Shown: piece after piece, positions 2,812 to 42,201 of the stretch
Numbering within the stretch: position 1 is the stretch's first letter
Layout of the letters: every line of letters begins with the position of its first letter
Source of the DNA: Campylobacteraceae bacterium
GTDB taxonomy: Bacteria; Campylobacterota; Campylobacteria; Campylobacterales; Campylobacteraceae
Direction of reading: 5' to 3'
Assembly: GCA_012519705.1 (NCBI GenBank)
Contig: JAAYPR010000051.1
Location: 423 to 64,422, forward strand
Length of the DNA stretch: 64,000 bases
Translations under genes and position numbers: made by a program
Notes under the pieces: model-generated
The model's database searches: none
What the model saw: only the letters and a program-made list of their open reading frames with translations
Told to the model about the DNA's origin: nothing

Positions 2812-3960
2812 TTACCTAAATTTATCTACATAAAACATCCAAATAAACAAAATCAAACTAAACGCAAAGCTCATTCCAAATGCAGAAACTCCAGGCTCAA
2901 GCCCAAAAATAGTTTGAATGATTTTAGCGATATATGGGTTTAAAAACTGCCCTAGATACAAGGATGTGCTCATCATCCCCATCGCAACTGCCATGTTTGG
3001 TTTGCTTACTTTTAGCCCAACAGATGACATCATAAACGGCATCATAAAGCCTTGAGCAAGTCCCACAAATGTAAGCCCTAAAAAGACGTGAACAAAATTT
3101 GTAGCTAAATACTGTGATAAAAACCCAAGTGCAAAAAATAGTGCAAATAAAAACTTTGCCTTTTTGCCAAGTTTTTGTAAGATAGTTGAAAAAACAATCC
3201 CTACAATGATAACGCAAAGATGCTGATACCCCATCAAAACACCGATATATTTAGGCTCCATTCTCTCAGCCATTACGATAGAAAAATTCGTTGGAAATGA
3301 GTAGAAAACTAGCATAGATAAAAACACACCGATTATAAACGGGTGAATTTGCTTGGTTATCTCTACTTTTGAAATCTCCACGTTTGATTTTTTCCTTAGC
3401 ATTACTCTAGGTAGGAAAAGTAGCACGAAAATAGCTATCACAAGCCCTAGCAAGTAGATATAAAAGCTATAGTTCCATGAAATCGCCGCTAAATACGCCG
3501 AAAGCGGTGCCGCGATAAGCCCCATAAAACTTGAAACCGATGATGAGTAGCCAAGAAGTTTAACTTTTTCTTTATCATCGTAAAGATAAGCGATTAGTGC
3601 GGTTGAGAGTGGCTGGATAAGCCCAACTCCAAGTCCTAAAACGCCCCTTAAAGCTAAAATCACATAGATATTATCCACAAAAGCAGCCCCAACTCCGCCG
3701 ATGACATAAAGTGTAAGACCAAGCATAGCTAAATCTTTAGTGTTAAAAAATTTAGCCAAATAGCTAAAGAAAAATGTGCTAAAAATGATGAAAATGCTAT
3801 GAACTGAGACTATTTGAGAGATTAAAATCGTATCATGACCGCTAAAATGTCTCGCTATCATCCCTAACGCTGGGGCGATAGCCGCTGCTGCCATCACAGT
3901 AGTAAGTGAAAGTGAAAGAACCGTTATGGTTGCCATTTTTGAGACGCTGTTACTGCTCAT
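2812..3960 (-). CDS. MFS transporter
   Basis: About 12 hydrophobic segments; MFS-like LRGVLGLGVG segment; GGAG RBS before ATG. Confidence 0.85.
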   Translation of the reverse strand: MSSNSVSKMATITVLSLSLTTVMAAAAIAPALGMIARHFSGHDTILISQIVSVHSIFIIFSTFFFSYLAKFFNTKDLAMLGLTLYVIGGVGAAFVDNIYVILALRGVLGLGVGLIQPLSTALIAYLYDDKEKVKLLGYSSSVSSFMGLIAAPLSAYLAAISWNYSFYIYLLGLVIAIFVLLFLPRVMLRKKSNVEISKVEITKQIHPFIIGVFLSMLVFYSFPTNFSIVMAERMEPKYIGVLMGYQHLCVIIVGIVFSTILQKLGKKAKFLFALFFALGFLSQYLATNFVHVFLGLTFVGLAQGFMMPFMMSSVGLKVSKPNMAVAMGMMSTSLYLGQFLNPYIAKIIQTIFGLEPGVSAFGMSFAFSLILFIWMFYVDKFR

Positions 3961-10684: not shown

Positions 10685-11008
10685 ATGCCAATTCCAGTTT
10701 TTGTAGCAGGTTTAGCAGTAGGTGCAGGGTTAGTTGTAGCTTATAATAACAAAGATAAAATCAAAGAAAGTATTGTAAGCGGAGTTGAAAAAGGAAAAGA
10801 TTTAGCAAGTGATGCTAAAGAAAAAGTTTGCAAAAGTAAAAAAGATGAGTGCCCTGAATGTGTAGAGGCAAAAGAGGCTGAGTGTAAAGAAGTAGAGGCT
10901 AAAACAGAAGCTAAAACTGAATGCAAAGAAGAAGAGCCAAAAGCAGAAACCAAAGCAGAGCCAGCTAAAGCAGAGCCAAAAAGCACTACCAAAAAGGAAG
11001 CTAAATGA
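10685..11008 (+). CDS. Small protein with N-terminal GxxxG helix and Glu/Lys/Cys-rich tail
   Basis: FVAGLAVGAG; tail CKSKKDECPEC...EAEC...TEC; GGAG RBS. Confidence 0.7.
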   Translation: MPIPVFVAGLAVGAGLVVAYNNKDKIKESIVSGVEKGKDLASDAKEKVCKSKKDECPECVEAKEAECKEVEAKTEAKTECKEEEPKAETKAEPAKAEPKSTTKKEAK

Positions 11009-11316
11009 TGTTTAAAACTTCAACTAGCAGACTGCCAACAGATCACTTTATAAGTGGAGCGTTATTTGGCGGTATGAGTGCGGCGGCTTTTGAGTTTTAT
11101 GGTAAAGATAACGACACAGCTACAAAAGTAAAAAATATCTCTAAATTTGCACTTCAAGGTGGCATAGCAGCATATCTTTCAATAAGTGCATCAAACAAGT
11201 TAGTTCAAAGAGATTATCTAAGAGCTGGTGTTGATATAGCTTTGGGTGCTGGACTTATCATAGCAACTGAGAAAATATTAAAAACTAAAAAAGTAGAAGT
11301 AAAAGAGGTAAAATGA
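11005..11316 (+). CDS. Small membrane protein with GxxxG motifs
   Basis: FISGALFGG and ALGAG; start and stop overlap the neighbouring genes. Confidence 0.72.
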   Translation: MMFKTSTSRLPTDHFISGALFGGMSAAAFEFYGKDNDTATKVKNISKFALQGGIAAYLSISASNKLVQRDYLRAGVDIALGAGLIIATEKILKTKKVEVKEVK

Positions 11317-30143: not shown

Positions 30144-30401
30144 CTATTTATAAACATCTTTTCTATGTGAAATTTTAACAACTAAAATCACAAGTTTATC
30201 ATCTAAAATTTGAGCTAATATTCTATAATCCCCACTTCTATATCTCCAAAGTCCTAGTAAATTTCCAGCTAATGGCTTTCCATCATCTTTTGGGTTATCT
30301 AAACTCTCTATAAATCTTAGCTTTTTGAAAATTTGAATTTGTGCGGTTTTATCAAGCTTAGAAAACTCTTTTTTGGCTCTATCGTTGAGTTCAACTCTCA
30401 T
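30144..30401 (-). CDS. RelE/StbE-family type II toxin
   Basis: GKPLAGNLLGLWRYRSGDYRI...ISHRKDVY. Confidence 0.9.
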   Translation of the reverse strand: MRVELNDRAKKEFSKLDKTAQIQIFKKLRFIESLDNPKDDGKPLAGNLLGLWRYRSGDYRILAQILDDKLVILVVKISHRKDVYK

Positions 30402-32487: not shown

Positions 32488-32859
32488 TTAAAACTGCCTA
32501 AAAATCAACATCCCCAAATAACATGCTAAAAGAGCAAGTCCGACGCTTAGAAAGATATTTACAAAAGCAAGGGCTAAGTCTCCCTTCATCATCATCTCTA
32601 AGTTCTCATAACTAAAAGTTGAAAATGTAGTAAGCCCACCTAAAAAACCTGGTATTAAAAACGAGCGAAGTTCAGGACTGAGCTTTACAGCGACACTCAT
32701 AAAAACGCCGATTAAAAACCCGCCCAAAACATTTACTATCATAGTTCCATAAGGGAAATTTGAACCAAAAGCTTTAAAAGAGTAAGTAGTTATTAGCACT
32801 CTTAAAATCGCTCCTAAAAACCCACCACAACCAACTAAAAAAAGGATTTTCAAACTCAC
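32488..32859 (-). CDS. crcB: Fluoride channel Fluc/CrcB
   Basis: GGFLGA..R, FPYGT..VN, GFLGGLTTFSTFS. Confidence 0.95.
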   Translation of the reverse strand: MSLKILFLVGCGGFLGAILRVLITTYSFKAFGSNFPYGTMIVNVLGGFLIGVFMSVAVKLSPELRSFLIPGFLGGLTTFSTFSYENLEMMMKGDLALAFVNIFLSVGLALLACYLGMLIFRQF

Positions 32860-33539
32860 TCCACAGGTTTTAAAATATATCCAAGGCTTTGGACATTAGT
32901 TAAATTTATACCATCAAGCTGTTTTTTAAGACGTAAAATCGCTGTATGAATCGCCCCAGTGGTAACACTTTTGCCATCATATGCGTAGTTTTCTATCATC
33001 TCATAGGTAACTAAATTTGAAAGATTGTAGCAAAAAAGCCAAAATATTGAGTTTTCTAGTTTTGTAAGGTAAATTTCCTTGCCATCTTTGAAAATTCTCT
33101 CTTTATTGAAATTCAGAGTTATAGACGGGGTTAAATTTAGAGTTTTAGTTTTGTTTTTTAGAGCTGCCATTATGACTGTGTTTTGCAAGTCTTCCATTGT
33201 AACTGGTTTTTTCATAAATGAAATCGCTCCTTTTTCTATGCTTTTAAAAAGGTTTTTATCACTGTCATAGGAAGTTATGACGATGAAGTTTTGGTCGGGT
33301 TTGAGTTTTAAAATTTCGTTCATCATATCAAAACCGTTTAAATTTGGCATTAATATATCAGTAATAACTATATCAACTCTATCTTGCTTGAATTTTTCTA
33401 ATCCATCAAGCCCGTCAACTGCCGTGATAAAAGACTCACAATGTTTCTTAAGTCCGTTTGAAATAGCCACTCTTGTTAGTTCGTCATCATCAACTAAAAG
33501 AACTCTTGTATTTTCTAAAACTTTTAATCTCTCATTCAT
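32856..33539 (-). CDS. OmpR-type response regulator (receiver plus winged helix)
   Basis: LLVDDD, ITDILMP phospho-Asp, FMKKP; C-terminal LTKLE...IHTAILRLKKQL...VQSLGY. Confidence 0.9.
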   Translation of the reverse strand: MNERLKVLENTRVLLVDDDELTRVAISNGLKKHCESFITAVDGLDGLEKFKQDRVDIVITDILMPNLNGFDMMNEILKLKPDQNFIVITSYDSDKNLFKSIEKGAISFMKKPVTMEDLQNTVIMAALKNKTKTLNLTPSITLNFNKERIFKDGKEIYLTKLENSIFWLFCYNLSNLVTYEMIENYAYDGKSVTTGAIHTAILRLKKQLDGINLTNVQSLGYILKPVE

Positions 33540-35194
33540 TTTTGCTCCATATTTTGTTTGATGGTTAGTTTAAAAATAGTTGGGTTTTTAGCTTGAAAAA
33601 GCTCGATATCTCCGCCAAGTTTATCTTGTGCGATAACTTTTGAAAGATACAGCCCTATGCCACTACCGTGCTTTTTAGTGCTTTTTTTGTATTTTGTAAA
33701 AAGTGTGCTTGGGTTTGAAACCCCATGTCCTGTATCTTTTACATAAATTTCCACAAACTCACCCTCAACTCTCGCTTCTATATAAATTCGCTTTTTTCTC
33801 TCTTTGTTTCTTAGTGCATCTTTTGAGTTTTGTAAAAGCACTAGTAAAATTTGCTGTAAAAAGCTCTCATTTGAGACTACTTTTATATTAAATTTATCGA
33901 TAAAAAGACTTATGCTGTATTTTGCAAAGTCCATTTGAAGAAGTTTTGTTAAATTTACAATAGCAGTGTATAAATCAAACTCGCTTATATCATCTTTAAA
34001 CTCATAGAAATTTCTAAAGCTCTCAACAGTTTCGTTCATTAACAGGGTTGATTTTATACAAAGGTCTAAATTTTCTAAAAGCTCCTCATCGCTTAAATCG
34101 CCACTATTTTTTTGATCTTTTGTGCTACTTAGCAGTAGTAAAGATGAGTTTAAAGGCTGTTTTAGCTGATGAGCGATAGATGCGATAAGCTCTCCTGTCT
34201 CGCTCATTTTAAGCTGATGAGAGAGGATAAACTCATACTCTTTTTGTTTTTTTAAGATTTTATTATGTATAAATGTGTGGATATAGTTTGAAAATATTAT
34301 GAGTAGTAGAAATAAAATCGTTAAAACAGTTCCGTTTTTTACTAAAATTTGTATAGTGCTATCAGTGATGACTTTTTCATCTATGCTAACTCCAACATAC
34401 CAGTTTACAAGGGGAATTTTAACTACTTCTATAAAGTTATCTTGGTATTTAAATATCCAGCCTTTACTCTCCTCTTTGGAGTTTAAAAAGCTCTGTTTTA
34501 AATTTGGATAGTTCTCTTTTTTAATCAAAGATGAGATAATCTCCCCATCTTCATCAAAAAGGTAAGCATTATCAACAAAAGGATGAATTTTAGGGCGAAT
34601 TTTTTGAAAAAACTCTGATGCGATAATCACCCCGCAAACTGAGCCTTCTGTAACGCTGTTTTCAAAGGTTGAGCAGATGTGGATAGTTCTAGTATTTAAA
34701 ATATCGTGATGGTTGACTATGGAGATACTGCTTGAGTTGTTTCCGCAGATTGACTTTTGAAACCAGCAGGTTTTCATCACGCTTTCAAGGTTTTCTATTT
34801 TTTCAAATTTATTATCAAAGATTAAAAAACCGTTTTCAAAAATGATTTGATAGTGGTCAAAAAACGGACTATCTTTATCTATAATGTTTGACTCTTTTAC
34901 AAACTCAAAACTCTCTTCTTCGCTGTAAGAGTTGGTAAAAAACTCTAAAAATGAAGCGAAGTTTTCAATGCTTTTTATCCGAGTTGAGAGCCACTCATTT
35001 GTGCTAAAGCTTATCTCTTTTGAGATGGAGTTTCTAAAGCTAGAGCCTAAATTTAAGATTTCATTTTTGATTTGAAAATAGCTTAAGATAAAGGAGGAGG
35101 TTACCATTATGGTAAACAAAAAAAGGATTGCGTAAATTTTAGCATTTTCAAATTGATAAAACTTAGATAATAAGTTTCTAAATTTAACTCTCAA
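33536..35194 (-). CDS. Sensor histidine kinase with periplasmic Cache-like domain
   Basis: Two TM helices flanking a periplasmic region of about 240 aa; IAHQLKQPLN H-box, N-box, DTGHG, GSGIGL. Confidence 0.9.
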   Translation of the reverse strand: MRVKFRNLLSKFYQFENAKIYAILFLFTIMVTSSFILSYFQIKNEILNLGSSFRNSISKEISFSTNEWLSTRIKSIENFASFLEFFTNSYSEEESFEFVKESNIIDKDSPFFDHYQIIFENGFLIFDNKFEKIENLESVMKTCWFQKSICGNNSSSISIVNHHDILNTRTIHICSTFENSVTEGSVCGVIIASEFFQKIRPKIHPFVDNAYLFDEDGEIISSLIKKENYPNLKQSFLNSKEESKGWIFKYQDNFIEVVKIPLVNWYVGVSIDEKVITDSTIQILVKNGTVLTILFLLLIIFSNYIHTFIHNKILKKQKEYEFILSHQLKMSETGELIASIAHQLKQPLNSSLLLLSSTKDQKNSGDLSDEELLENLDLCIKSTLLMNETVESFRNFYEFKDDISEFDLYTAIVNLTKLLQMDFAKYSISLFIDKFNIKVVSNESFLQQILLVLLQNSKDALRNKERKKRIYIEARVEGEFVEIYVKDTGHGVSNPSTLFTKYKKSTKKHGSGIGLYLSKVIAQDKLGGDIELFQAKNPTIFKLTIKQNMEQK

Positions 35195-35318: not shown

Positions 35319-37172
35319 TCACTTGCTTAAAGCTTTTTCTACGCTAAATGGGAAAGCTTGGTATCCGCTACTTCCTGACATATGGATTTTAAGTTCAAAT
35401 GATGGCTCTGTTGCATTCCATTCAAACTCACTTAGAGTTGGTGTTGGAGCACCAATTCTTGTGCCTGTCGCAAGGTCAAAGTCCATACCAGCTGTAGCTG
35501 AGTAAACAAGAACAGAGTCTTTGTCTTCATGATACTCTGTTAGTGAAGTAACAGGGCTATAGTAAGACTTGCCTCTTTGTTTTCCATATTCCCAAATTTG
35601 TTCAACCGTCATGTTTTTTTGATCAACTTTATAAATAACACCACGGCTATATTTCATATCTGGAAGTGCAGGTTGTTCAAACCCTCTACTGTCACCGTTG
35701 TCAAATACCGCTACAGTAACTACATCTTCATTTGTTTTGCTATCGATTACAAATGCTGTGTGCTGAGTATAAGTCCAGTCAAATCCACCTTCTGGGTTTA
35801 GATATCCAGGACATTTTGTATACTCATCTTCACATACGATTTTGTTACCTTCGCTATCAACTGGTTGAAGTAGGTATTGTTTAAACTCATCTTTCCAGCC
35901 TTTGTGAGCACCTAAAATCCACTTAACTTTTTTATCTCTACCGATTTTAATAACTGCGTTTTGGTGGCGAGATGAGATAACTATACTATCATCGCTTGGA
36001 TCGTGATCAACACTATTTACGTGAGCCCAGTTTCTACCAGCTCCACTTCCAACGATATCGCCAAATTTATCACTTGCATCAAGTGCTGCCAAGTCATCAT
36101 CACTTAGAGTTTGACCAGCTTGAGATGCGTCGATGTTTAGACAAACTGCACCTTGGTCAAGAACTTTTAGAACATTATCTCTATATGGATCTAAAATTTG
36201 GAAAAGTTTCCAGTCATCTACAACGTTCCCATCTTTATCTACTTCTATAATCACGTCTCTAACAGTTCTAACGTTTTTACCATCTGGGCGTTTTGTATTA
36301 GCTGAAGCTACGCGAAGTAGGTAGTTTCCGTTGTCCATATTGTCCATAGAGTGTGAGAAGTCAATATAGCCTTTTGGAAGAGGGCGGTTAAAAATCTCAC
36401 GTCCTAAGATGTCATATTTAGCATAGTTTTGTCCATATCCCCAAGTGATAGCCCCATCATCATTTTGCTTAAAGCCCATCATAACACCAGCATTAAACGC
36501 AGAGTGTAGGTTGTAAATAGGTGGATAGAACATATACCATCTAACTTCACCTTTTGTATCAAGGATATAGTTGTTTGGCTCAAAATTCCACTCTAGTGCA
36601 CCACCCATTGGGTTGTTCCAAACTAGCTCAACACCATTTGCACTTTTGCCACCTAAGTTGTTGATAAAGTAAAGTCTGTCTGCAAATTTTTCAGTTGGCT
36701 CTTTTGTGATTTCAATACTATCAAAAAATGCACTCTTTTGTCCTCTTAGTCCGCTTCCGTTAGACCAAACAGCAGGTGCGTAAATTTTATAATCTTCTTT
36801 GATTACTTCCTCTTGTCCTTTGTAAATTCTAGTATATTCAACCTCAACCGTGTTTTGATAGTCTGCATACATACCAAATACTGGAATTCCACCATGAGTT
36901 AAAAGATGCTTATTTGCAACTTTGTATTTGATTTCCTGACCACCTGGCTTTGGAACGATTCTAACAGTAACATCTTTGATATCATAGCCGCCATTTGAGA
37001 TTATCGCTGTAAGTGGTGCGATACCGTAAGGGTTTGCTTTAACTGCACCCAGTTTTCCTTGAAGAACATAGTCAGTTCTTGGACCGCTTGCTCCACCAAT
37101 TGCTAGAGCTTGTGTAGCACCTACAGTTAGTAACAAACCAGCAACAACTGCTGAACTTAAAATTTTTTTCAT
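35319..37172 (-). CDS. assT: Periplasmic aryl-sulfate sulfotransferase, copy 2
   Basis: Sec signal peptide; DFSHSMD, NWAHVNS, SSRHQ, TQHTAF catalytic motifs; Cys pair CEDEYTKC. Confidence 0.92.
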   Translation of the reverse strand: MKKILSSAVVAGLLLTVGATQALAIGGASGPRTDYVLQGKLGAVKANPYGIAPLTAIISNGGYDIKDVTVRIVPKPGGQEIKYKVANKHLLTHGGIPVFGMYADYQNTVEVEYTRIYKGQEEVIKEDYKIYAPAVWSNGSGLRGQKSAFFDSIEITKEPTEKFADRLYFINNLGGKSANGVELVWNNPMGGALEWNFEPNNYILDTKGEVRWYMFYPPIYNLHSAFNAGVMMGFKQNDDGAITWGYGQNYAKYDILGREIFNRPLPKGYIDFSHSMDNMDNGNYLLRVASANTKRPDGKNVRTVRDVIIEVDKDGNVVDDWKLFQILDPYRDNVLKVLDQGAVCLNIDASQAGQTLSDDDLAALDASDKFGDIVGSGAGRNWAHVNSVDHDPSDDSIVISSRHQNAVIKIGRDKKVKWILGAHKGWKDEFKQYLLQPVDSEGNKIVCEDEYTKCPGYLNPEGGFDWTYTQHTAFVIDSKTNEDVVTVAVFDNGDSRGFEQPALPDMKYSRGVIYKVDQKNMTVEQIWEYGKQRGKSYYSPVTSLTEYHEDKDSVLVYSATAGMDFDLATGTRIGAPTPTLSEFEWNATEPSFELKIHMSGSSGYQAFPFSVEKALSK

Positions 37173-37248: not shown

Positions 37249-37279
37249 ATTTTACTCCAAGTTCTCACAAAGTTCTAAT
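37249..37279 (-). promoter_or_regulatory. assT2 promoter: -10 TAAAAT plus tandem repeat box
   Basis: Plus strand GTTCTCAC-AAA-GTTCTAAT (37261-37279), 6 nt from ATTTTA (37249-37254). Confidence 0.65.
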
Positions 37280-37374
37280 AATTATATAAAAATATGCTTA
37301 AAATTTAAGATAAAAATTTAAATTACAAAGTTAAGATTTTAAAAAGTTAACTAAAAAAGAGATATATAGCATTA

Positions 37375-37392
37375 GGGGGCAAATTTGCCCCC
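37375..37392. terminator. GC-rich hairpin after assT1
   Basis: GGGGGCA-AATT-TGCCCCC. Confidence 0.55.
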
Positions 37393-37422
37393 CCTGCAAG
37401 GAAAAATACGTTACAAGCTTTA

Positions 37423-39249
37423 TTACTTACTTAAAGCTTTCTCGATACTAAATGGCCATGCTTGGTAACCCATAGCGTTGGTCATTACGATTTCAACAGC
37501 TGGCTCTGTTTCACCCCATCTAAACTCGTTGATGTGTGGGCTTGGAAGACCTGTTGGGTTTCCTGTAGCGATGTCAAACTGCATTCCAGCAACAGCTGAG
37601 TAAGCAAATACTGAGTTTTTGTCTGCTTGGTATTCTGTTAGAGATGTAACTGAGCTATACCAGTCAAATCCTCTTTCTTTTCCATACTCCCAAACTTGTT
37701 CAACTGTCATATTCTTTTGGTCGATTTTGTAAACAACCGCTCTTGAATACTTCATAGTTGGAAGTGCTGGTTGAGTCATACCTCTACTATCACCGTTGTC
37801 AAAAGCACTTACATAGATGATATCGCCTTTGCTTAACTCATCGATTTTAAATGCTGTATGTTGTGTCCATGTAAAGTCGAAGTCTGAGTTTTCACAAACA
37901 CCTTTTTCGTTACAATTGATTTTGTTTCCTTGGGCGTCAATTGGTTGTAAAAGTTTGCTTTGGAACTCTTCTTTCCAGCCTTCACTTGCACCAAGTATCC
38001 AAGTAACTTCTTTGTTTCTACCGATTTTAATGATAGCGTTTTGGTGTCTTGAGCTTAGGATGATACTATCATCTTCTGCGTCGTGATCAACACTGTTTAC
38101 GTGTGCCCAGTTTCTTCCTGGTCCAGAACCCACGATATCGCCAAACTGATCATTTGTATCCATAGCTGCTAACTCATCTTCACTTAGAGTTTGTCCACCC
38201 ATTGAAGCGTCGATGTTTAGACATACCGCACCTTGGTCAAGAACTTTTAGAGCTACGTCTCTATATGGATCTAGCATCTCATATAGTCTCCAGTCATCAA
38301 CAACATTACCATCTTTATCAACTTCAACGATAACGTCTCTTACTGTTCTAACGTTTTTACCGTCATTTCTCTTTAGGTTTGCGTTTGCAACTCTTAGGAA
38401 GTAGTTACCGTTTGGACTATCATCCATTGAGTGTGAGTAGTCAACGTAACCTGCTGGTAACTCTCTGTTGAAAATCTCTCTACCCATGATGTCGTATTTA
38501 ACATATCTTTGTCCATATCCCCAAGTGATAGCACCGTCATCATTTTGCTTAAAGCCCATCATAACACCAGCGTGGAATGCCGAGTCAAGCTTATAGATAG
38601 TTGTAGCATCTAAGAACCATCTAATCTCACCTGTTGTATCCACGATGAAGATTTGTGGGTCATAGTTCCACTCTAACGCACCACCCATTGGGTTGTTCCA
38701 TACAACTTTTGTACCTTTTCCAGTTTTGTTTTGGAAGTTGTTTACAAAGTAAAGTCTGTCTTTGAAGTCATCATCAACTTTTACAACTTCGATTTTGTCA
38801 AAGAACACGCCTTTTTGTGAAGCGTGACCTGATGTTGGTCCATAAACTGGTGGTGCATAAAGAGTATAAGTTTCGTTAACTTTTTCTTCAACACCTTTGT
38901 ATGTTTTTGTATAGCTAACTTCTACTTTGTTTACATAGTCAGGATATAAGCCAAATACTGGAATACCACCATGTGTGCCAAGTTCGCCGTTTGCAACATC
39001 GTATTTAATCTCTTGGCCACCTTCTTTTGGCACGATTCTAACAGTCGCGTCTTTTATGCTATATCCACCATTTTTGATAACAGCTGTTAATGGAGCTATA
39101 TCATATGGGTTCATAACAACTTCACCGATTACACCTTGAACAGCGTAGTCAGTTCTTGGACCACTTGCTCCACCAATCGCTAGAGCTGAAGTAGCACCTA
39201 CAGTTAGCAACAAACCAGCAACAACTGCTGAACTTAAAATCTTCTTCAT
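37423..39249 (-). CDS. assT: Periplasmic aryl-sulfate sulfotransferase, copy 1
   Basis: Same catalytic motifs (DYSHSMD, NWAHVNS, SSRHQ, TQHTAF); Cys pair CNEKGVC. Confidence 0.92.
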   Translation of the reverse strand: MKKILSSAVVAGLLLTVGATSALAIGGASGPRTDYAVQGVIGEVVMNPYDIAPLTAVIKNGGYSIKDATVRIVPKEGGQEIKYDVANGELGTHGGIPVFGLYPDYVNKVEVSYTKTYKGVEEKVNETYTLYAPPVYGPTSGHASQKGVFFDKIEVVKVDDDFKDRLYFVNNFQNKTGKGTKVVWNNPMGGALEWNYDPQIFIVDTTGEIRWFLDATTIYKLDSAFHAGVMMGFKQNDDGAITWGYGQRYVKYDIMGREIFNRELPAGYVDYSHSMDDSPNGNYFLRVANANLKRNDGKNVRTVRDVIVEVDKDGNVVDDWRLYEMLDPYRDVALKVLDQGAVCLNIDASMGGQTLSEDELAAMDTNDQFGDIVGSGPGRNWAHVNSVDHDAEDDSIILSSRHQNAIIKIGRNKEVTWILGASEGWKEEFQSKLLQPIDAQGNKINCNEKGVCENSDFDFTWTQHTAFKIDELSKGDIIYVSAFDNGDSRGMTQPALPTMKYSRAVVYKIDQKNMTVEQVWEYGKERGFDWYSSVTSLTEYQADKNSVFAYSAVAGMQFDIATGNPTGLPSPHINEFRWGETEPAVEIVMTNAMGYQAWPFSIEKALSK

Positions 39250-39358
39250 TTTTTCTCCTTATGGTAAAATTAACTAAATACCTTAAGCCAAAAACAACTA
39301 CGAAGTAATTTATCGTAGCTCTCTTTATGGAGACTTTGCTGCTTTTTAGCTTGGAGAG

Positions 39359-39390
39359 ATTATATAAAAGAGTTCTTACGAAGTTCTCAC
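39359..39390 (-). promoter_or_regulatory. assT1 promoter: -10 TATAAT plus tandem repeat box
   Basis: Plus strand GTTCTTAC-GAA-GTTCTCAC (39372-39390), 7 nt from ATTATA (39359-39364). Confidence 0.75.
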
Positions 39391-39679
39391 AAATTTATTA
39401 AATATATATTAAATTGAAAATAAAAGAAAAAATAAATAAAAAGTTATAATAAATAAATTTAAATTATAAATTTTAAAGTGAGAACGAGGTTATATATATG
39501 AGAAATTTAGGGTGCTTTAACAAATTTTTCTTTTAAAGAGATAATTATAGAAGCTATTGGTATAAAATTTTTTTAAAACAAACTATCAGGTGGTTAATCA
39601 AAGGAAAAGTATATAGTGTATATTTAAATTGATGAAGTTAAAAAGATAAACTATAGGCTAAAAATACTCTAAAGCAGGA

Positions 39680-39703
39680 CTAGGGAGTAAGTTTACTCCC
39701 TAG
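39680..39703. terminator. Hairpin after dsbI
   Basis: CTAGGGAGTAA / TTACTCCCTAG. Confidence 0.55.
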
Positions 39704-39740
39704 AGAAAATTTTTGTTTAACAGTTTTTTGTGGAGAATAC

Positions 39741-40418
39741 TCAGTCTGACATTACGTCATTAGCTGTCGAAATTATCCAGCTAACTAACATCGCAACCAG
39801 ACAAACTAGTGCAACTACATACGCTAAAAGCGTACAAATTGACATATCCATAAATTGGAACTTTGGTATTAGATACCAGCCATTGCTATACAGATCTGTA
39901 AAGAACGTTTGGATGCCATTTAACTCTACTCCTGTTGGAACAACTGGAGCGTCATATCCACAATCCCCTGTTGGTTTAAACCAATCAGGCCATTTATCAG
40001 CAAGCATAACTTCTATGCCTAAGAAGTAAAAGTGTGGATCTGTTGAACATCCTTGCATACCCATCATAGCAAATGGATCATCGCTGTGAACAGCTTTGTG
40101 AATACCGTGTAGTTTTACACTAAATAGTATCCCAATAACTGCACCATAAATCGCTAAAAAATACCCTATAAGTTTTGCAACTATTTCTTTTGGGTTAATC
40201 GCTGCAATAACACCGCCGATTACCATTAAAAACATTGAGTATCTAATATACACACACTGTTCGCACGGTAGCATATATAGATAGTTTTGAAAGAAACTAT
40301 GTGCTAGAATAATTAGTGATAGCATAACTACTGCCATTATTATCCATAACGGTCTTTTGTTTTGCCATCTAGCTATAGTTTCAATTGGCGAACTTTTTAA
40401 ATCTTGCCATAATTTCAT
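39741..40418 (-). CDS. dsbI: DsbB-family disulfide bond formation protein DsbI
   Basis: LPCEQCVYIR motif; second periplasmic Cys pair (GCS...TGDCG); adjacent to dsbL and assT. Confidence 0.9.
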   Translation of the reverse strand: MKLWQDLKSSPIETIARWQNKRPLWIIMAVVMLSLIILAHSFFQNYLYMLPCEQCVYIRYSMFLMVIGGVIAAINPKEIVAKLIGYFLAIYGAVIGILFSVKLHGIHKAVHSDDPFAMMGMQGCSTDPHFYFLGIEVMLADKWPDWFKPTGDCGYDAPVVPTGVELNGIQTFFTDLYSNGWYLIPKFQFMDMSICTLLAYVVALVCLVAMLVSWIISTANDVMSD

Positions 40419-40453
40419 ATTTTACAAACCCCTTTTTTTTGCCTGTTTAGAAA

Positions 40454-41143
40454 TTAATCCAATTTTCTTAGTTCTTGGATCATATCAACCATAGCATCAA
40501 TGCCTTTAATAGCGTTTGTTTTGATTAGGTATTTTCCATCTACAACAAATGCTGGAACTCCTTGAACTTTGCCTATCATATAAGCATCACCTGAGTTATC
40601 CATACCCCAAGTAGCTAAAATTTCCCCAACTCTTGCATCGTTAATTTTAGCTTCATAGTCAGCTTTGCTCATACCAATAGCGTCTAATGCTGTTTTTAAG
40701 AAAGCATCAACGTTTGCTTGGTTGCTTGCATCAGCTCCCCATCTCTCGCCTTTGTCATGGTATGCAATGTAAAGAGCAAATTTAGCTTTTTTGAAAGCTG
40801 AGTCTTCTGAAAGTAGGTTGTCTATACCGTTTTTCTCATCTTCAGCGATAGCTACTGCTAAAACTTGACTTCCATGAACGCCATATACACCTTTTGAAGT
40901 TAGGTGAAATGGAACAAATTTCATATCTGGAAGTTTAGCCATAACAGGAACTGTTACTGCTTGGTCAAATTTATAGCAGAATGGACAGTCATAACTAAAT
41001 GCTTTTATAACTGTGTTTTCAGCATTTGGGACAACTCTTTCTAGCTTAACATACTCTTTTCCCTCTGTTAGAGCATTTGCACTAACACCTATAAATAGAG
41101 CCGCAACGGCAACTGATTTTACAACACTTTTAAATAATTTCAT
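40454..41143 (-). CDS. dsbL: DsbA-family thiol:disulfide oxidoreductase, DsbL type, copy 1
   Basis: Signal peptide; SYDCPFCYK active site; VQGVPAF cis-Pro loop. Confidence 0.87.
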   Translation of the reverse strand: MKLFKSVVKSVAVAALFIGVSANALTEGKEYVKLERVVPNAENTVIKAFSYDCPFCYKFDQAVTVPVMAKLPDMKFVPFHLTSKGVYGVHGSQVLAVAIAEDEKNGIDNLLSEDSAFKKAKFALYIAYHDKGERWGADASNQANVDAFLKTALDAIGMSKADYEAKINDARVGEILATWGMDNSGDAYMIGKVQGVPAFVVDGKYLIKTNAIKGIDAMVDMIQELRKLD

Positions 41144-41170
41144 GTGTCCTCCTAGTAAAGATTTGACATA

Positions 41171-41202
41171 ATTATATTGAGCTGTTCTTACGAAGTCGTC
41201 AC
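41171..41202 (-). promoter_or_regulatory. dsbL1 promoter: -10 TATAAT plus tandem repeat box
   Basis: Plus strand GTTCTTAC-GAA-GTCGTCAC (41184-41202), 7 nt from ATTATA (41171-41176). Confidence 0.75.
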
Positions 41203-41280
41203 AATAAACTTAAATTAGTTTTAAAATAGTAAAATAATATAAAAAGTTAAAATAATAGTATAAAACTGAGTAATTAGTAG

Positions 41281-41311
41281 CTAAAACTAGGATTTAACCT
41301 CCTAGTTTTAG
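41281..41311. terminator. Hairpin after dsbL2
   Basis: CTAAAACTAGGA / TCCTAGTTTTAG. Confidence 0.55.
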
Positions 41312-41356
41312 TGGGTAAAATTTGAGCTATAGGTTGTAAATTTAAATTTATAGCTT

Positions 41357-42043
41357 TTAATCTAGCTTTCTAAGCTCTTTGATTGTGTTAACCATAGAGT
41401 CTATGCCAGTTATAGAGTTTGTTTGGATTAGGTATTTTCCATCTACAACAAACGCTGGAACACCTTGAACTTTACCTACCATATAAGCATCGCCAGCTGT
41501 ATCCATCCCCCAAGTAGAAAGAATCTCTTTAACTTTTTCATCTTTTAGTTTTTCTTCAAACTCAGCTTTACTCATACTCATAGCGTCTAATGCTGTTTTT
41601 AAGAAAGCATCAACGTTGGCTTGAACTTTCGCATCAGCTCCCCATCTCTCACCTTTGTCGTGATATGCCCCATATAATGCAAATTTAGCCTTTTTAAAAG
41701 TTGAGTTATTTGAAAGCAAGTCCACGCCATTTTTTTCATCTTCAGCTATAGCTACTGCTAAAACTTGGCTTCCATAAGCTCCATAAATGCCTTTTGTGGC
41801 TATATGGTAAGGGATAAATTTCATATCTGGAAGCTTTGACATAACAGGGATTGTTACTGCTTGATCAAATTTATAGCAAAATATACAGTCATAGCTAAAT
41901 ACTTTAATAACTGTGTTCTTGGCATTTGGGATAACTCTTTCTAGCTTAACGTAGTCCTTTCCTTCCGTTAGAGCATTTGCACTAACGCCTATAAACAGAG
42001 CCGCTGTGGCAACTAATTTTATAATTTTTCTTACTGTTTTCAT
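41357..42043 (-). CDS. dsbL: DsbL-type oxidoreductase, copy 2, with CIFC active site
   Basis: Close paralog of copy 1; SYDCIFCYK; VQGVPAF. Confidence 0.85.
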   Translation of the reverse strand: MKTVRKIIKLVATAALFIGVSANALTEGKDYVKLERVIPNAKNTVIKVFSYDCIFCYKFDQAVTIPVMSKLPDMKFIPYHIATKGIYGAYGSQVLAVAIAEDEKNGVDLLSNNSTFKKAKFALYGAYHDKGERWGADAKVQANVDAFLKTALDAMSMSKAEFEEKLKDEKVKEILSTWGMDTAGDAYMVGKVQGVPAFVVDGKYLIQTNSITGIDSMVNTIKELRKLD

Positions 42044-42069
42044 ATTTCCTCCTTTAAAAACATATTTTA

Positions 42070-42101
42070 ATTATACAGAATGGTTGTTGACAAGTAGTTA
42101 T
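42070..42101 (-). promoter_or_regulatory. dsbL2 promoter: -10 TATAAT plus degenerate tandem repeat box
   Basis: GTTGTTGA-CAA-GTAGTTAT (42083-42101), 7 nt from ATTATA (42070-42075); AAGT junction conserved. Confidence 0.5.
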
Positions 42102-42201
42102 GATAAAATAAAATTTAGCTTAAAATATGTATTAAATTTTATAATTTAGATTTTTAGAAATAAGTAAAAGAAAAATAGTAAATATAGAAGTAAAAAAGAA
42201 T

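Follow-up and report, generated by a model that had tools for sequence, protein, structure and literature searches.

In E. coli, PhoB recognises the pho box, whose half-site is CTGTCAT; in Campylobacter jejuni, PhosR has a pho box, and the DccR box reads WTTCAC-N6-TTCACW. The activity of the arylsulfotransferase AstA serves in Campylobacter both as a reporter and as a read-out of the Dsb system. As for the genes of such enzymes, iron and Fur govern the dsbA2-dsbB-astA cluster of C. jejuni, beside which no two-component system is reported (PMC3167755), and the assT-dsbL-dsbI cluster of Salmonella Typhi is controlled positively by LeuO and negatively by H-NS (PMC4264507). Here we analyse a stretch of 64,000 nucleotides (the window; contig JAAYPR010000051.1 of assembly GCA_012519705.1) from a Campylobacter genome of 1.72 Mb with 34.8% G+C, in which two assT genes, two dsbL genes and dsbI lie next to a gene pair for a sensor kinase and a response regulator, and in which a 19-bp direct repeat, the box, precedes the -10 element predicted for three promoters. 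We consider it probable that this repeat serves as operator for the two-component system encoded next to it and that it would mediate phosphorylation-dependent class II activation of assT1, assT2 and dsbL1-dsbI. Our case is built on promoter anatomy, statistics, the family of the regulator and cross-species conservation, and from these we infer binding, the direction of control and the signal. Positions are window coordinates unless a contig or locus is named.

In the direction of transcription, the consensus of the box in the source genome is GTrAGAAC-N3-GTrAGAAC. The box consists of two head-to-tail 8-mer half-sites separated by a 3-nt spacer, an arrangement that gives an 11-bp period at three promoters of this locus and in all orthologous loci (Table 1). 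The original prediction had assigned such a repeat to four promoters, those of assT2, assT1, dsbL1 and dsbL2, each 6-7 nt upstream of a minus-strand TATAAT or TAAAAT. When the sequence was checked, all four strings were found where they had been reported, the hexamer was present next to each of them, and the distance between the box and the predicted -10 proved to be fixed at 6-7 nt. As a repeat common to these promoters, the claim holds for assT1, assT2 and dsbL1, where the likeness goes far beyond chance, and falls for dsbL2, where it is at background.

The statistics of the source genome separate these two cases. With up to two mismatches allowed, GTRAGAAC-N3-GTRAGAAC has eight matches on both strands of the 1.72-Mb genome, three of which are the assT1, assT2 and dsbL1 boxes, and it is only at these three that a -10 box follows. 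Two weight matrices, one made from seven sites of other species only and the other a full matrix, were scanned over 3.44 million positions. The matrix from other species ranks the site of assT1 first, that of assT2 ninth and that of dsbL1 tenth, while the full matrix places dsbL1 second and assT2 third. The dsbL2 string, with six mismatches to the consensus, receives -3.6 bits from the matrix of other species and 0.0 bits from the full one. The genome scan for more members that the original prediction had proposed yielded no further high-scoring site located in a promoter of the source genome, where the loose core pattern described below gives 18 matches. The best extra candidate, C17:74402, was rejected on account of its position inside a glycosyltransferase coding sequence. 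Because the matrix scans contain no other promoter-located high scorer, the regulon of the source genome appears to be local.

Both assT1/assT2 and dsbL1/dsbL2 are tandem paralogues, and the shared sequence could be nothing more than what duplication of the genes and their promoters left behind, without a part in regulation, an explanation that the original prediction had itself raised. The three strong sites contradict it. Identity is 68% between the assT1 and assT2 proteins and 57% between the third codon positions of their genes. Upstream of the genes, a global alignment gives 56% identity and leaves the two boxes unaligned, and the leader from the predicted -10 to the ATG measures about 109 nt at assT1 versus about 76 nt at assT2, so that the flanks of the two boxes can be regarded as randomised. 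The assT and dsbL promoters, for their part, are not homologous, and yet the boxes of assT1 and dsbL1 are identical at 17 of 19 positions and share the -10, against 2 of 7 positions in their 7-nt spacers. The likeness among assT1, assT2 and dsbL1 is thus restricted to the putative functional elements, the box and the predicted -10. Moreover, the box fronts the same gene families in genomes whose regulators are only 50-80% identical, unlinked loci included. As an account of the strong sites, we judge duplication residue to be extremely improbable; at dsbL2, where the identity within the box equals the background identity, it is adequate.

The presumed binder of the box, encoded by the adjacent regulator gene, is by its sequence a divergent OmpR/PhoB-type protein with intact phosphorylation residues. 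Its receiver domain matches Pfam Response_reg with an E value of 2.6e-21, and D18, D19, D61, T89 and K111, which correspond to the acidic pocket, the phospho-acceptor, the threonine and the lysine of such domains, are invariant in 17 orthologues. Full-length alignments to solved structures (PDB) were obtained with OmpR/PhoB members only, namely DrrD (1kgs), PhoP, PrrA, MtrA and BasR, with E values from 1e-13 to 1e-18. Trans_reg_C is matched by 16 of the 17 orthologues at E<0.01 (best, 2.2e-6), and no NCBIfam equivalog exists for the regulator; a C-terminal winged helix is very probably present, in a divergent form. Matches to dCache_1 are seen in orthologous kinases, and the kinase-regulator pair is kept in all orthologous loci. 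BumSR of C. jejuni was considered as an orthologue, prompted by a similar database name (“putative two-component regulator”), and was set aside; homologues with about 50% identity in the other large genus adjoin assT-dsbL-dsbI. No BumR motif was found in the report on that system (PMC12469816).

The most extensive evidence comes from other genomes. Orthologues were gathered by a homologous-protein search, by retrieval of the encoding contigs and by a genome search. The regulator protein had only distant, irrelevant matches and no close relatives among species-representative genomes; homologues with 45-82% identity are present in many Campylobacter lineages, and the sampled Campylobacteraceae contain them in 109 of 201 genomes and 7 of 12 genera. 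Their neighbourhoods hold assT and usually dsbL-dsbI, in varied arrangement. The sites found before these genes (Table 1) share a family-wide core, GTnA-N7-GTnA, with the -10 beginning 10-11 nt later, and the 3’ part of each half-site drifts with the divergence of the regulator. In 66 fetched loci the core pattern occurs 25 times, and all but one of these occurrences are directly upstream of assT, dsbL or oprD. Across 30 regulator-bearing genomes there are 63 matches to the core pattern. The regulator gene is no more than 10 kb away from 19 of them, which come from 16 genomes, compared with about 0.7 expected. The box also follows targets that are unlinked to the regulator: in the G213 clade it precedes an assT gene about 1.5 Mb away, and in G076 a dsbL-dsbI operon at a distance of 1.2 Mb. 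In one genome, G075, it precedes the kinase gene as well as dsbL-dsbI and assT, and G113 likewise has it before the kinase gene.

Loss of the regulator is accompanied by loss of the box. Genomes G001 and G007 have assT arrays that are 81% identical to assT1, and neither a regulator homologue at E<=1e-40 nor a box was found in them, one-mismatch matches occurring at chance frequency only; their first assT gene carries a canonical TTGACT-N17-TAGAAT promoter. The original proposal that the box is the binding site of the adjacent regulator over the -35 region thus receives strong comparative support from an OmpR/PhoB-like regulator, from co-occurrence across species in register with the -10, and from the absence of the box where the regulator is absent. 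It could also be supposed that another DNA-binding protein encoded elsewhere, such as a second OmpR-family regulator, recognises the box, and that the adjacency is coincidental or serves some other target. An 11-bp direct-repeat period occurs throughout the OmpR/PhoB family, and five or more further response-regulator paralogues are encoded in the source genome. Each of these, however, is at most 36% identical to the regulator; across genera the box accompanies the regulator and disappears with it, and in G075 the box precedes the kinase-regulator operon itself. We consider recognition by such a protein very unlikely.

Several observations weigh against the adjacent regulator as the activator that works through this box. 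The Trans_reg_C match of the regulator itself spans the whole model (1-77) with an E value of 8.4e-5, and its 23.0 bits are below the Pfam cut-off of 26.2. No exact core match is found near the regulator in the regulator-bearing genomes G090, G105, G091, G043 and G069, and the site of G017 is imperfect. Internal assT spacers of G017 and of G001, in which no regulator was found, hold a solitary GAGATT half-site 6 nt upstream of TAAATT. In the source genome, the box is absent upstream of the kinase-regulator operon, as it is before the kinase gene of L058, the locus whose regulator is 80% identical. Besides, the -10 boxes are predicted only, a protein bound at -38 to -20 could also repress, and Campylobacter sigma-70 promoters are generally without a -35 element, which makes a missing -35 weak evidence for dependence on an activator.

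Two further observations concern promoters of the orthologous loci. The tandem assT arrays of G001 (L068) and G017 (L067) have terminator-like hairpins between the genes, each followed by GTTTCAAATTTGAGATTT-ctatc-TAAATT, in which a single box-like half-site stands at the proper distance from a weak -10. The dsbL promoters of the C. concisus-like group (L029, about 3500-3580, plus strand) and of genus g20 (L070, 5286-5318, plus strand) share a variant of the box placed 7 nt before the -10, GTGAGTTT-TGC-GGCGGCGA and GTTAAATT-TGC-GGTTGAGC, whose distal half-site is good and whose proximal half-site is GC-rich. This variant is kept between distant lineages, and yet its proximal half departs from GTnA.

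In the mechanism that we propose, the dCache-type kinase would sense a periplasmic signal, presumably an aryl or phenolic compound related to the substrates of AssT, and would phosphorylate the regulator on D61. The regulator would occupy both half-sites as a head-to-tail dimer that spans about -38 to -20, in place of a -35 element, and would recruit or activate RNA polymerase in the manner of class II activators. Three separate units, assT1, assT2 and dsbL1-dsbI, would be switched on, so that the cell would produce the sulfotransferases along with the disulfide machinery responsible for their folding; dsbL2 would probably be expressed independently of the regulator.

The arrangement of the promoters favours activation over repression. 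In more than 15 diverged promoters the box keeps a strict register of 6-7 nt with the -10 and one constant orientation, which argues for a contact with RNA polymerase, and -35-like hexamers appear at promoters that have parted with the box or the regulator. A repressor that occupies -38 to -20, blocks RNA polymerase and is relieved by the signal would be compatible with a box that overlaps the polymerase footprint and with near-consensus -10 boxes (TATAAT), since a strong -10 alone could fire and Campylobacter promoters often need no -35. The BumR regulator of C. jejuni, furthermore, both represses and activates its targets (PMC12469816). Nevertheless, the register and the single orientation, which suit an activator, would be needless for a repressor, and the promoters of G001, G007 and dsbL2 gained their -35-like hexamer as if to compensate for a lost activator. 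Repression through the box is, in our judgement, unlikely, and activation remains the preferred direction of control.

Other classes of element were discarded for the repeat. A promoter of an alternative sigma factor was rejected, since the repeat does not agree with the consensus of sigma-28 or of sigma-54. A DccR-type box was rejected by inspection: on the plus strand the sites contain TTCTCAC or TTCTTAC, for example GTTCTCAC-AAA-GTTCTAAT, and not the TTCAC-N6-TTCAC of the DccR consensus.

The promoter of dsbL2 merits separate consideration. The dsbL1 and dsbL2 genes have 81% nucleotide identity, and their promoters are collinear and 61% identical. The dsbL2 string agrees with the dsbL1 box at 11 of 19 positions, which is no higher than the 61% background of the duplicated promoter, and for this reason it is probably a decayed copy of the box and not a functional site for the regulator. 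It no longer contains, in its promoter-proximal half-site, the GT that all ten strong boxes of our compilation have there; imperfect candidate sites, such as those of the G017 and G148 dsbL promoters, likewise do not have it. Overlapping the relic, a consensus scan identified a sigma-70-like promoter, TTGTCA-N18-TAAAAT, that matches the consensus at 10 of 12 positions and is of a kind that does without an activator. The gain of this -35-like hexamer, together with the -35-bearing assT promoters of the regulator-less genomes, suggests that dsbL2 is now independent of the regulator and perhaps constitutive. A constitutive DsbL2 would make sense given that the assembly yielded no other DsbA-like gene. 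The original prediction had read the degenerate dsbL2 site as a sign of graded induction, which is unsupported: the proximal GT is lost, the score is that of background, and decay after duplication explains the site. The dsbL2 promoter would then be a case of regulatory rewiring after duplication, in which the box was lost and a -35-like hexamer gained. On the opposite strand, a plus-strand sigma-70-like promoter, TTGACA-N16-TAAAAT, with 11 of 12 matches, lies at 42087-42114 and overlaps the decayed box. It faces the 3’ end of a convergent gene for a solute-binding protein, to which any transcript would be antisense, and it may be a chance product, because TTGTCAA/TTGACAA is near-palindromic there.

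The genes of the locus follow one another along the minus strand, in the order of transcription, as dsbL2, dsbL1, dsbI, assT1, assT2, sensor kinase, response regulator and crcB (Table 1). The products of both assT genes match Arylsulfotrans and the N-terminal Ig-like Arylsulfotran_N of Pfam, and the AssT-DsbL-DsbI module is complete, with arylsulfotransferase, DsbI and a DsbA-like partner with CxxC. Hairpins are visible 3’ of dsbL2, dsbI, assT1 and assT2, and they would mark off distinct units in the region, with one promoter for each. Only 35 nt separate dsbL1 from dsbI, which are therefore probably co-transcribed, and the kinase and regulator genes overlap by 4 nt. The crcB gene overlaps the stop of the response-regulator gene, also by 4 nt (32856-32859), and the same adjacency is found in L058 (crcB at 10687-11055); on account of this overlap and of the conserved adjacency, crcB seems to share a transcript with the two-component genes and not to lie behind a fluoride riboswitch. 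A tblastn search of the assembly (E<1e-4) found no DsbA-like or DsbB-like genes beyond those of DsbL1, DsbL2 and DsbI, and the AssT-associated DsbL/DsbI may double as the general disulfide-forming machinery of the cell. Elsewhere in the genome, an identical 31-nt string, ATGATAAACTTGTGATTTTAGTTGTTAAAAT, is present on two contigs, at C31:30624 (about window position 30202, minus strand) and at C29:32865, which indicates a repeated element beside a glutamate symporter gene.

Table 1. Features of the assT-dsbL locus in the window, followed by the boxes of orthologous loci. Sequences are given in the direction of transcription; percentages after genome names are the identity of the regulator.
Feature	Position	Strand	Description
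assT1 box	39372-39390	minus	GTGAGAAC-TTC-GTAAGAAC-tctttta-TATAAT; zero mismatches; best site in the genome
assT1 predicted -10	39359-39364	minus	TATAAT, 7 nt downstream of the box
assT2 box	37261-37279	minus	ATTAGAAC-TTT-GTGAGAAC-ttggag-TAAAAT
assT2 predicted -10	37249-37254	minus	TAAAAT, 6 nt downstream of the box
dsbL1-dsbI box	41184-41202	minus	GTGACGAC-TTC-GTAAGAAC-agctcaa-TATAAT
dsbL1 predicted -10	41171-41176	minus	TATAAT, 7 nt downstream of the box
dsbL2 probable box relic	42083-42101	minus	ATAACTAC-TTG-TCAACAAC-cattctg-TATAAT
dsbL2 predicted -10	42070-42075	minus	TATAAT, 7 nt downstream of the relic
dsbL2 candidate sigma-70-like promoter	42064-42093	minus	TTGTCA (42093-42088), 18-nt spacer, TAAAAT (42069-42064); overlaps the relic
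dsbL2, DsbA-like	41357-42043	minus	CIFC motif; recent dsbL1 paralogue, 77% amino-acid identity; own transcription unit
dsbL1, DsbA-like oxidoreductase	40454-41143	minus	CPFC motif; first gene of the dsbL1-dsbI unit
dsbI, DsbB-family partner	39741-40418	minus	NCBIfam DsbI equivalog, 322.7 bits vs cut-off 212
assT1, periplasmic aryl-sulfate sulfotransferase	37423-39249	minus	Pfam Arylsulfotrans, E 1e-135
assT2, assT1 paralogue	35319-37172	minus	68% amino-acid identity to assT1
Sensor histidine kinase	33536-35194	minus	Two transmembrane helices, dCache-like periplasmic domain, HisKA, HATPase_c
Response regulator, divergent OmpR/PhoB type, proposed box binder	32856-33539	minus	Pfam Response_reg; Trans_reg_C below the Pfam cut-off
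crcB, fluoride channel family	32488-32859	minus	Downstream of the response-regulator gene
Box of dsbL-dsbI-assT, L058 (80%)			GTGATAAC-TCA-GTGAGATT-N7-TATAAT
Box of assT, C. geochelonis (67%)			GTAATATT-TCG-GTCAGAAG-N7-TATAAT
Box of oprD-assT, C. sputorum (62%)			GTGAGAAT-TTT-GTTAGATT-N6-TACAAT
Box of assT, C. sputorum (62%)			GTTAGATT-TTT-GTGAGATT-N6-TATAAT
Box of another assT, C. sputorum (62%)			ATGAGAAT-TTT-GTAAGAAT-N7-TAGAAT
Box of the first of four assT genes, G076 (54%)			GTAAGAAC-TTA-GTAAGAAC-N7-TATAAT
Box of oprD-dsbL-dsbI-assT, Campylobacteraceae metagenome-assembled genome (51%)			GTTATGCC-GTC-GTTAATCC-N7-TAAACT
Box of assT, G148, another genus (51%)			GTGATTTT-TAT-GTTATAAG-N7-TACAAT
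Box of assT, C. concisus-like group (50%)			GTGATTTC-TAC-GTTAGCGA-N7-TAAAAT; invariant in eight species

In other genomes, a gene for an outer-membrane channel belongs to the box-controlled cluster: it is OprD-like in C. sputorum (L062, 938-2254) and in the metagenome-assembled genome (L065, 6661-7887), and in G075 (L074, 7344-9134) it encodes a weak TonB-dependent-receptor-like beta-barrel. No such gene is present in the cluster of the source window. These channel genes hint that the passage of the substrate through the outer membrane into the cell is regulated.

A broader reading, which we put forward tentatively as a possibility with the odds against it, is that the regulator pair, the GTnA-N7-GTnA box and AssT/DsbL/DsbI, joined in several species by an OprD-like or other channel, might form one signal-inducible periplasmic module across much of the Campylobacteraceae, whose dCache sensor would respond to the natural AssT substrates, be they aryl, phenolic or aryl-sulfate compounds. 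If this were true, the inducer would reveal the physiological substrate and the role of bacterial AssT in the gut. The physiological role and natural substrates of AssT and AstA are still obscure, and a direct experimental route to them is opened by a dedicated sensor kinase, a defined operator and a small regulon made up of the enzyme, its own disulfide-forming pair and, in some genomes, an outer-membrane channel, the inducer of these promoters being likely to be chemically related to the substrate of AssT. The box is, in addition, a ready-made motif for annotating the regulon in Campylobacter genomes.

A full-text literature search found no papers on a two-component system or an operator for assT or dsbL, and the regulon appears to be undescribed so far, although the mechanism itself is a textbook one, a regulatory device of a well-known kind. 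The pho box of E. coli is also composed of two head-to-tail half-sites with an 11-bp period that stand in for the -35, close to the -10 and at a constant spacing from it, the -10 being a predicted one in the locus described here. Like PhoB, the regulator of this locus has a receiver, a cognate membrane kinase and very probably a winged helix, and it would serve several promoters in one regulon. The half-site, however, is GTnAGAAC here and CTGTCAT in the pho box, the two regulators are distantly related, and the proposed targets are arylsulfotransferase and Dsb genes instead of phosphate genes. Closer in phylogenetic terms, PhosR and DccR of C. jejuni come from the same bacterial family and regulator class, act through 11-bp direct repeats just upstream of the -10 and govern small dedicated regulons of periplasmic or membrane proteins; the box described here, GTGAGAAC-N3 in the direction of transcription, with the complement TTCTCAC, does not fit their consensuses. 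With regard to the genes under control, the assT-dsbL-dsbI clusters of uropathogenic E. coli and Salmonella resemble this locus in that a periplasmic AssT is accompanied by its own DsbL/DsbI pair. What distinguishes the Campylobacter locus from the S. Typhi cluster is that its genes are duplicated and split into separately promoted units, for which we propose a dedicated two-component system and a specific operator.

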